In this document: positions 19,913-20,010 of the stretch, one piece after another | Layout: each line of letters opens with the position of its first letter | How positions within the stretch are numbered: the stretch's first letter is position 1 | Assembly: GCF_003334405.1 (NCBI RefSeq) | Contig: NZ_QOWM01000016.1 | Length of the DNA stretch: 64,000 nucleotides | Direction: 5' to 3' (one strand) | Source of the DNA: Escherichia coli | GTDB taxonomy: Bacteria; Pseudomonadota; Gammaproteobacteria; Enterobacterales; Enterobacteriaceae | Translations under genes and position numbers: made by a program | The notes under the pieces: model-generated | Told to the model about the DNA's origin: nothing | The model's input: only the letters and a program-made list of their open reading frames with translations | Database searches by the model: none

Positions 19913-19980
19913 GAGCTGACCCCTTGGTTACGAATACAGAGTACAAACCCCGTACAAAAGTACGGGGCATAATGCAATTA

Positions 19981-20010
19981 TAGATGGGGGGGATTTTGAG
20001 GGTTTCAACC
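19981..20010 (-). promoter_or_regulatory. sigma32 heat-shock promoter of hslVU
   Basis: Minus strand reads TTGAAAC - 13 nt - CCCCCATCTA, matching the sigma32 consensus (-35 TTGAAA, -10 CCCCATNT); overlaps the ftsN stop codon. Confidence 0.85.

Follow-up and report, generated by a model that had tools for sequence, protein, structure and literature searches.

The closest described counterpart of the locus analysed here is the leader of the hslVU (clpQY) operon of Escherichia coli, studied by Lien, Yu, Liou and Wu in 2009 (Open Microbiol J 3:29, PMC2681174). In that work, clpQ::lacZ fusions were heat-induced (42 C), rpoH-dependent and rpoS-independent, and a C-to-T change in the -10 element CCCCATCT decreased expression and abolished heat induction. 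Deletion of 40 bp of the leader lowered the reporter and its mRNA, and deletion of the inverted repeat (delta-IR) lowered both ClpQ protein and mRNA, with a faster decay of the latter after rifampicin addition. The mRNA was also lowered when the 3' arm of the repeat was replaced by T's (S-IR), and it was restored when the arms were swapped (R-IR, GGGGCATG-TTTT-CATGCCCC). Transcriptional and translational fusions behaved alike, no thermo-sensitive segment was found by the authors, and Hfq had no effect according to their unpublished data. The constructs used to follow stabilisation were plasmid-borne and expressed from the pBAD promoter, with the hairpin placed away from its native distance to the 5' end (PMC2681174).

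The window, i.e., the whole 64-kb stretch of DNA analysed here, carries menA, hslU, hslV, ftsN, cytR and priA in a segment of the E. coli chromosome in which all six genes lie on the minus strand. The primers described by Lien et al. are identical to the window sequence (PMC2681174), and a 201-nt query spanning the region matched each of the 5426 complete E. coli genomes, the identity being at least 99% in 5277, with ftsN and hslV flanking it in RefSeq. The elements identified in the region were the following, from ftsN to hslU:

20005..20964, minus strand: ftsN coding sequence, 319 aa (ORF listing; same end in the RefSeq annotation of E. coli AST85).
20003..20008, minus strand: -35 hexamer of the sigma-32 promoter, TTGAAA, whose bases 2-4 are the ftsN stop TGA.
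19990..20002, minus strand: promoter spacer of 13 nt, CCCTCAAAATCCC (read from the sequence).
19982..19989, minus strand: -10 element of the sigma-32 promoter, CCCCATCT (sequence and pattern scan).
19973..19975, minus strand: predicted transcription start, G19975 / C19974 / A19973 (deduced from promoter geometry).
19947..19968, minus strand: stem-loop G-CCCCGUAC-UUUU-GUACGGGG-U, with 8 Watson-Crick pairs (19967..19948) and a closing G-U, predicted at -16.5 kcal/mol.
19910..19967, minus strand: match to Rfam RF02401, "ClpQY promoter", which takes in the hairpin, the linker, the Shine-Dalgarno and the GTG, covers model positions 1-57 out of 57 and scores 63.6 bits (gathering score, 42).
19920..19925, minus strand: Shine-Dalgarno of hslV, AAGGGG (from the sequence; its GGGG is nearly invariant among 40 aligned leaders).
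19382..19912, minus strand: hslV (clpQ) coding sequence (ORF listing and RefSeq annotation).
18041..19372, minus strand: hslU (clpY) coding sequence, second gene of the operon (ORF listing).

RF02401 is a cis-regulatory family, and its match in the window ended at the GTG start codon of hslV (19912..19910), with the hslV and hslU ORFs coming next. The same GTG is annotated as the start in the RefSeq entry of E. coli AST85 and was also given by Lien et al. 2009 (PMC2681174). The hairpin had been placed by the earlier note about 35-55 nt before an hslV ATG; its distance held, being 36-55 nt to the G of the GTG, and the ATG did not, as the start codon is this GTG. Altogether, the region very probably consists of the heat-shock promoter of hslVU (clpQY) and, after it, a 5'-proximal stem-loop that stabilises the mRNA. 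Both the promoter and the leader hairpin are already known and curated, and there is nothing new in either.

The sigma-32 consensus (-35 TTGAAA, a spacer of about 13-15 nt and -10 CCCCATnT) was satisfied by TTGAAACCCTCAAAATCCCCCCCATCT, at 20008..19982, and the pattern TTGAAA-N12-15-CCCCATNT occurred a single time in the 64-kb window against 0.02 occurrences expected from shuffles. The 3' end of ftsN reads ...GCC GGG GGT TGA, and this TGA (20007..20005, minus strand) falls within the TTGAAA at 20008..20003, which bears out the overlap between a sigma-32 promoter and the ftsN stop codon that the earlier note had described; its assignment to sigma-32 agrees with the published genetics on an identical sequence (PMC2681174). 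Since ftsN terminates within the -35 hexamer, the gene and the promoter are not separated by any intergenic sequence.

Other features were observed around the promoter. A perfect TATAAT (19977..19982, minus strand) overlaps the 3' end of the sigma-32 -10 element (CCCCATCTATAAT), at a site where a putative RpoS -10 had been noted (PMC2681174); it is mostly retained in Enterobacteriaceae, either as TATAAT or as TATACT, and it could be the source of basal expression in rpoH mutants. A sigma-70 promoter was also sought, and none was found in a scan of 19300..21200, the TATAAT at 19982..19977 being without a usable -35 at 17 bp. In addition, the last three C's of the spacer and the first four of the -10 element form a run of seven C's (19986..19992, minus strand), which looks like a slippage-prone site for tuning hslVU expression, because a 2-bp deletion in it appeared in the heat-evolved E. 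coli BM28 (PMC10044804). Finally, a palindrome, GGGGGT-TGAA-ACCCCC, extends across the end of ftsN and the -35 hexamer (19997..20013 in the window). It is perfect in many Enterobacteriaceae (e.g., loci L025 from Enterobacter and L028 from Siccibacter) and carries a single mismatch in the copy of the window (GGGGGT TGAA ACCCTC), and it is probably a by-product of the Gly-Gly codons and the C-rich spacer.

Regarding the leader, a repeat finder detected an inverted repeat of 8 nt at 19948-19955 and 19960-19967, 100% complementary and with a 4-nt loop, whose DNA form on the minus strand is CCCCGTAC-TTTT-GTACGGGG (19967..19948); this is the perfect 8-bp stem-loop of the hslV leader reported at 19948..19967 by the earlier note. 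When the leader RNA was folded, this hairpin dominated the structure and the Shine-Dalgarno lay outside it, and the fold of a 76-nt leader had a z of -2.3. Perfect 8-bp stems with loops of 3-8 nt numbered 27 in the window against 7.3 +/- 3.3 in shuffles, many of the 27 being nested in longer stems, terminators or REP-like elements. Such a stem is not rare in the window, and therefore the case for the leader hairpin is comparative and experimental, not statistical. A possible upstream ORF was considered as well, starting at the ATG of position 19970, the G of which closes the stem, and running for 27 codons (19970..19887, minus strand) into hslV out of frame; it was rejected, as other genera have TCTG, TACG or TCAG in place of this ATG.

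The comparison was based on 80 hslV loci from seven families of Enterobacterales, Vibrionaceae, one Alteromonadales genome and several endosymbionts, which were gathered by protein similarity, so that their leaders were not pre-selected. A strict sigma-32 motif was present within 220 nt of hslV in 66 of the 80, and in 60 of these 66 promoter-bearing loci the TGA within TTGAAA was the in-frame stop of a long ORF ending in ...CI(R/P)L..GG, corresponding to ftsN. Judging from these sequences, the overlap between stop codon and -35 hexamer is order-wide in Enterobacterales and no accident of E. coli. A hairpin of -9 kcal/mol or lower starting at most 25 nt after the -10 element was found in 54 loci, and the gap between the -10 element and the stem was of 12-14 nt in 45 of them, a spacing consistent with selection keeping the stem near the transcript's 5' terminus. 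The hairpins comprised 48 distinct sequences, among them CCCCGTAC, GCCCTGAGC, CTCGTAGTGTCT, CCCCGCGTTGTG, CCCCACAC and GCGCCGCGC.

For the analysis of covariation, a covariance model was built from a 40-sequence alignment and the 9-pair stem of the window, giving hits in 70 of 81 sources; the alignment produced with this model was used instead of a plain MAFFT one, in which the stems of Erwiniaceae were out of register. Standard pairs were found in 93.3% of the cells (68 distinct sequences), a percentage somewhat inflated by the fitting of the alignment to the structure, against 32-59% when the 3' partners were slid by 1-3 columns, so the margin is still large. Double changes were detected at all nine pairs (9/9), amounting to 97 double-change cells against 19.5 +/- 5.4 in shuffles, and a swap from U-A to C-G was seen even between two genomes labelled as E. 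coli. Within Enterobacteriaceae, the loop-proximal and stem-base sequence GCCCCG...CGGGGC was fairly conserved.

The RF02401 threshold was exceeded in Enterobacteriaceae, Erwiniaceae, Hafnia, Yersinia and Serratia, and it was not reached in Photorhabdus, Proteus, Xenorhabdus, Budvicia, Dickeya, Shimwellia, Tatumella, Rosenbergiella or Vibrionaceae. The Photorhabdus loci (L041, L045, L049, L051 and L062) have a longer leader, with the -35 hexamer at about -128, and contain, between -81 and -39 relative to the start of hslV, an unrelated stem-loop instead of the enterobacterial one, whose stem reaches up to about 17 bp (-23.7 kcal/mol). In Xenorhabdus, Proteus, Moellerella and Morganella, no comparable leader hairpin was found by the criteria of -9 kcal/mol and 25 nt.

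The preferred reading of promoter and stabilising hairpin is as follows. RNA polymerase with sigma-32 recognises TTGAAA (20008..20003) and CCCCATCT (19989..19982) and would begin transcription about 7-9 nt past the -10 element, at the predicted 19975..19973 (NC_000913.3 4122338-4122340). With this start, only about 5-7 nt of the transcript would precede its first structured element, the GC-rich hairpin of 8-9 bp at 19968..19947, which shields the hslVU message from decay and thereby raises its steady-state level. By analogy with the leaders of ompA and papA, the hairpin would likely act by hindering the 5'-end-dependent attack or the scanning of RNase E; it leaves the ribosome-binding site open and is not a temperature sensor. 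The C-terminal codons of ftsN and the promoter are locked together across Enterobacterales.

The stabilising role that the earlier note had proposed for the hairpin is supported by the published mutants on an identical sequence and by the curated family RF02401. Even the proposed test, in which the stem is disrupted and then restored, was already in the literature, with S-IR lowering the mRNA and R-IR restoring it (PMC2681174). Disruption of the stem was far from being without effect, as both delta-IR and S-IR lowered hslV mRNA and ClpQ function. A full-text search of the literature with the promoter and hairpin sequences returned Lien 2009 only.

The position of the transcription start deserves separate consideration. 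The published +1 was given as 71 nt before the GTG, from a 1993 mapping cited in PMC2681174, and corresponds to C19983 of the window, because the primer for the "71-nt leader" (F5) starts with CATCTATAATTG (PMC2681174). This position lies inside the -10 element CCCCATCT, which makes it hard to accept for this promoter. In the numbering of the dnaKp1 scaffold, the last T of CCCCATnT is at -8 (PMC10216364), and as hslV shares its -35/-10 geometry, the start would be expected near 19974. The predicted start is thus 8-10 nt downstream of the published one, which would make a leader of about 62-64 nt, not 71, and would leave 5-7 unpaired nucleotides ahead of the stem, compared to 15 from the published +1. 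The transcription start supplements of Kim 2012 had no entry for hslV. Being geometrically inconsistent with the -10 element, the +1 of the literature deserves to be mapped again.

Among the alternative explanations, the one that survived best, unlikely as we consider it, is that in E. coli the hairpin and its UUUGU tail have a dual use: besides stabilising the mRNA, they would serve ftsN transcripts as a weak intrinsic terminator or as an insulator. With ftsN ending inside the hslV promoter there is no room for a terminator ahead of the latter, and these transcripts are left without another stop site. For the E. coli tail TTTGTACT, the terminator discriminant (formula of d'Aubenton-Carafa 1990) was about +9.5, hence marginally positive, and 6-7 T's within the 8 nt after the hairpin were present in Ca. 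Pantoea persica, Tatumella, Rosenbergiella, Hafnia and some Pantoea, where scores reached up to +55, comparable to the +51 of a canonical terminator in the window. However, a consensus terminator scan that required at least 5 T's in 8 did not include the hairpin among the 7 terminator-like sites of 19300..21200, its tail TTTGTACT having 4 T's, and the T-rich tail is not conserved, most genera scoring clearly below zero, with values from -6 to -38 in Citrobacter, Enterobacter, Kluyvera, Serratia, Yersinia and Erwinia. Moreover, the curated Term-seq data of Adams et al. 2021, whose complete tables cover LB at OD 0.4, LB at OD 2.0 and M63 medium, contained neither a sense (minus-strand) 3' end nor a Rho termination region in genome positions 4122280-4122379, and a terminator at the hairpin would attenuate hslVU as well. 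In the TERMITe supplements there was no ftsN or hslV entry. The unconserved tail, the silence of the scan and the lack of a sense 3' end in E. coli Term-seq led us to reject a terminator as a general explanation.

Two further observations concern this boundary. In seven Erwiniaceae loci (L039, L055, L056, L060, L064, L069 and L072, from Tatumella, Rosenbergiella and Pantoea), the hairpin with the 6-7 T's after it has a canonical terminator shape, located downstream of the sigma-32 promoter at around positions -30 to -20 relative to hslV, and it could be an attenuator, a terminator of ftsN or both. In addition, Adams et al. 2021 listed by Term-seq an antisense RNA 3' end (score 1381) at window position 19982 on the plus strand (NC_000913.3 4122347), 15 nt beyond the hairpin and adjoining the published hslV +1 (19983); on the antisense strand, no U-tract follows the hairpin. 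A more general proposal would make the hairpin a two-way boundary, serving as a 5' stabiliser for sigma-32 transcripts, as a weak terminator or insulator for RNA polymerases coming from ftsN in E. coli and as a strong attenuating terminator in some Erwiniaceae with T6-7 tracts; we hold this to be improbable. If the antisense 3' end belonged to such a boundary, the hairpin would be a signal for stopping or processing in both directions.

Considerably less probable is a translational control of hslV, either through the exchange of a hairpin arm with the GGGG of the Shine-Dalgarno (anti-SD switch) or through melting of the stem by heat (RNA thermometer). The operon is heat-induced, and the CCCC of the 5' arm is complementary to this GGGG and pairs with the Shine-Dalgarno in the predicted S-IR fold. 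In the wild-type fold, however, the arms pair together, and the predicted probability of the Shine-Dalgarno being unpaired was 0.37-0.40, close to the 0.43 of delta-IR or of a leader devoid of the hairpin, whereas it dropped to 0.21 in S-IR. The hairpin is located 35 nt upstream of the GTG and still has a predicted -13 kcal/mol at 50 C, the stems of other genera are not all C4/G4, and the published transcriptional and translational fusions behaved alike, with no thermo-sensitive segment (PMC2681174). Both versions were rejected on folding, because the stem does not include the Shine-Dalgarno and keeps its stability at 50 C. The suggestion of the earlier note that the hairpin could modulate translation was not supported either, the element being 35 nt from the start codon and leaving the Shine-Dalgarno untouched in the predicted wild-type fold. 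The effect of S-IR, in turn, could be translational in part, because the CCCC arm, once freed, is expected from the folding to bind the GGGG of the Shine-Dalgarno. According to the same folding predictions, delta-IR would be free of this confounding effect, its Shine-Dalgarno being open (0.43) and its mRNA still unstable (PMC2681174).

It is even harder to credit that the hairpin is a recognition element for a regulatory protein or a small RNA instead of a passive barrier. The fair conservation of GCCCCG...CGGGGC in Enterobacteriaceae could be taken in its favour, but swapping the arms in R-IR, which changes the sequence, restored the mRNA, Hfq was without effect in the authors' unpublished data (PMC2681174), and across taxa the loops were variable and the hairpin sequences as many as 48. 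Finally, a chance palindrome without function, for which the frequency of perfect 8-bp stems in the window (27 against 7.3 in shuffles) might speak, is refuted by compensatory changes at 9/9 pairs, the conserved position and the mutational data (PMC2681174), and its probability is practically negligible.

Elsewhere in the window, other Rfam matches above threshold corresponded to naRNA4 (1135..1212, minus strand), two copies of ES036 (6217..6258, minus strand, and 25611..25652, plus strand), the L31 (rpmE) ribosomal-protein leader (24579..24631, plus strand), the OxyS sRNA (55910..56019, minus strand) and a cobalamin riboswitch (61009..61198, plus strand), all of them expected in this segment of the E. 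coli chromosome. The 64-kb window yielded no tRNA genes.

Taken by itself, a textbook-style heat-shock promoter with a 5' stabilising hairpin has little significance beyond housekeeping. The order-wide overlap of the ftsN stop with the -35 hexamer, together with the fixed spacing between promoter and hairpin, illustrates how the C-terminus of an essential gene and a stress promoter can be locked together.

When compared with known systems, the element of the window is the very one on which RF02401 is based (Lien et al. 2009, Open Microbiol J 3:29, PMC2681174). Despite the word "promoter" in its name, the RF02401 model spans only the transcribed leader, from the hairpin to the GTG, without the -35 and -10 elements of sigma-32. 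With intrinsic terminators the hairpin shares a GC-rich stem of 8-9 bp, a 4-nt loop and the UUU that follows, and it differs from them in that its U-tract is too short and interrupted (UUUGUACU), its tail is not conserved and no Term-seq 3' end corresponds to it.

The promoter itself resembles other sigma-32 promoters of E. coli such as dnaKp1 (CTTGAA - spacer - CCCCATnT), with exact TTGAAA and CCCCATCT elements, and its -35/-10 geometry is that of the dnaKp1 scaffold used for the structure of the sigma-32 open complex (PMC10216364). Unlike promoters of the dnaKp1 type, its -35 hexamer also supplies the last codon position and the stop of the essential gene ftsN located upstream, and a perfect TATAAT overlaps its -10 element.

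As for the leader, a stable hairpin near the 5' end, as predicted for hslVU, is also present in the ompA and papA mRNAs (Emory, Bouvet and Belasco 1992; Bricker and Belasco 1999; both cited in PMC2681174). As in those cases, the hslVU hairpin lengthens the lifetime of the mRNA independently of its own sequence. Two differences from ompA were apparent: the hslVU stem would be 5-7 nt from the 5' end when counted from the predicted start, or 15 nt from the published +1, and its stabilising effect was seen behind the heterologous pBAD leader. The rule for ompA is that the stem is needed within about 2-4 nt of the 5' end. A stem located farther from the 5' end and active behind the pBAD leader may thus find a better analogy than ompA in the blocking of RNase E scanning, as reportedly described by Richards and Belasco in 2019.
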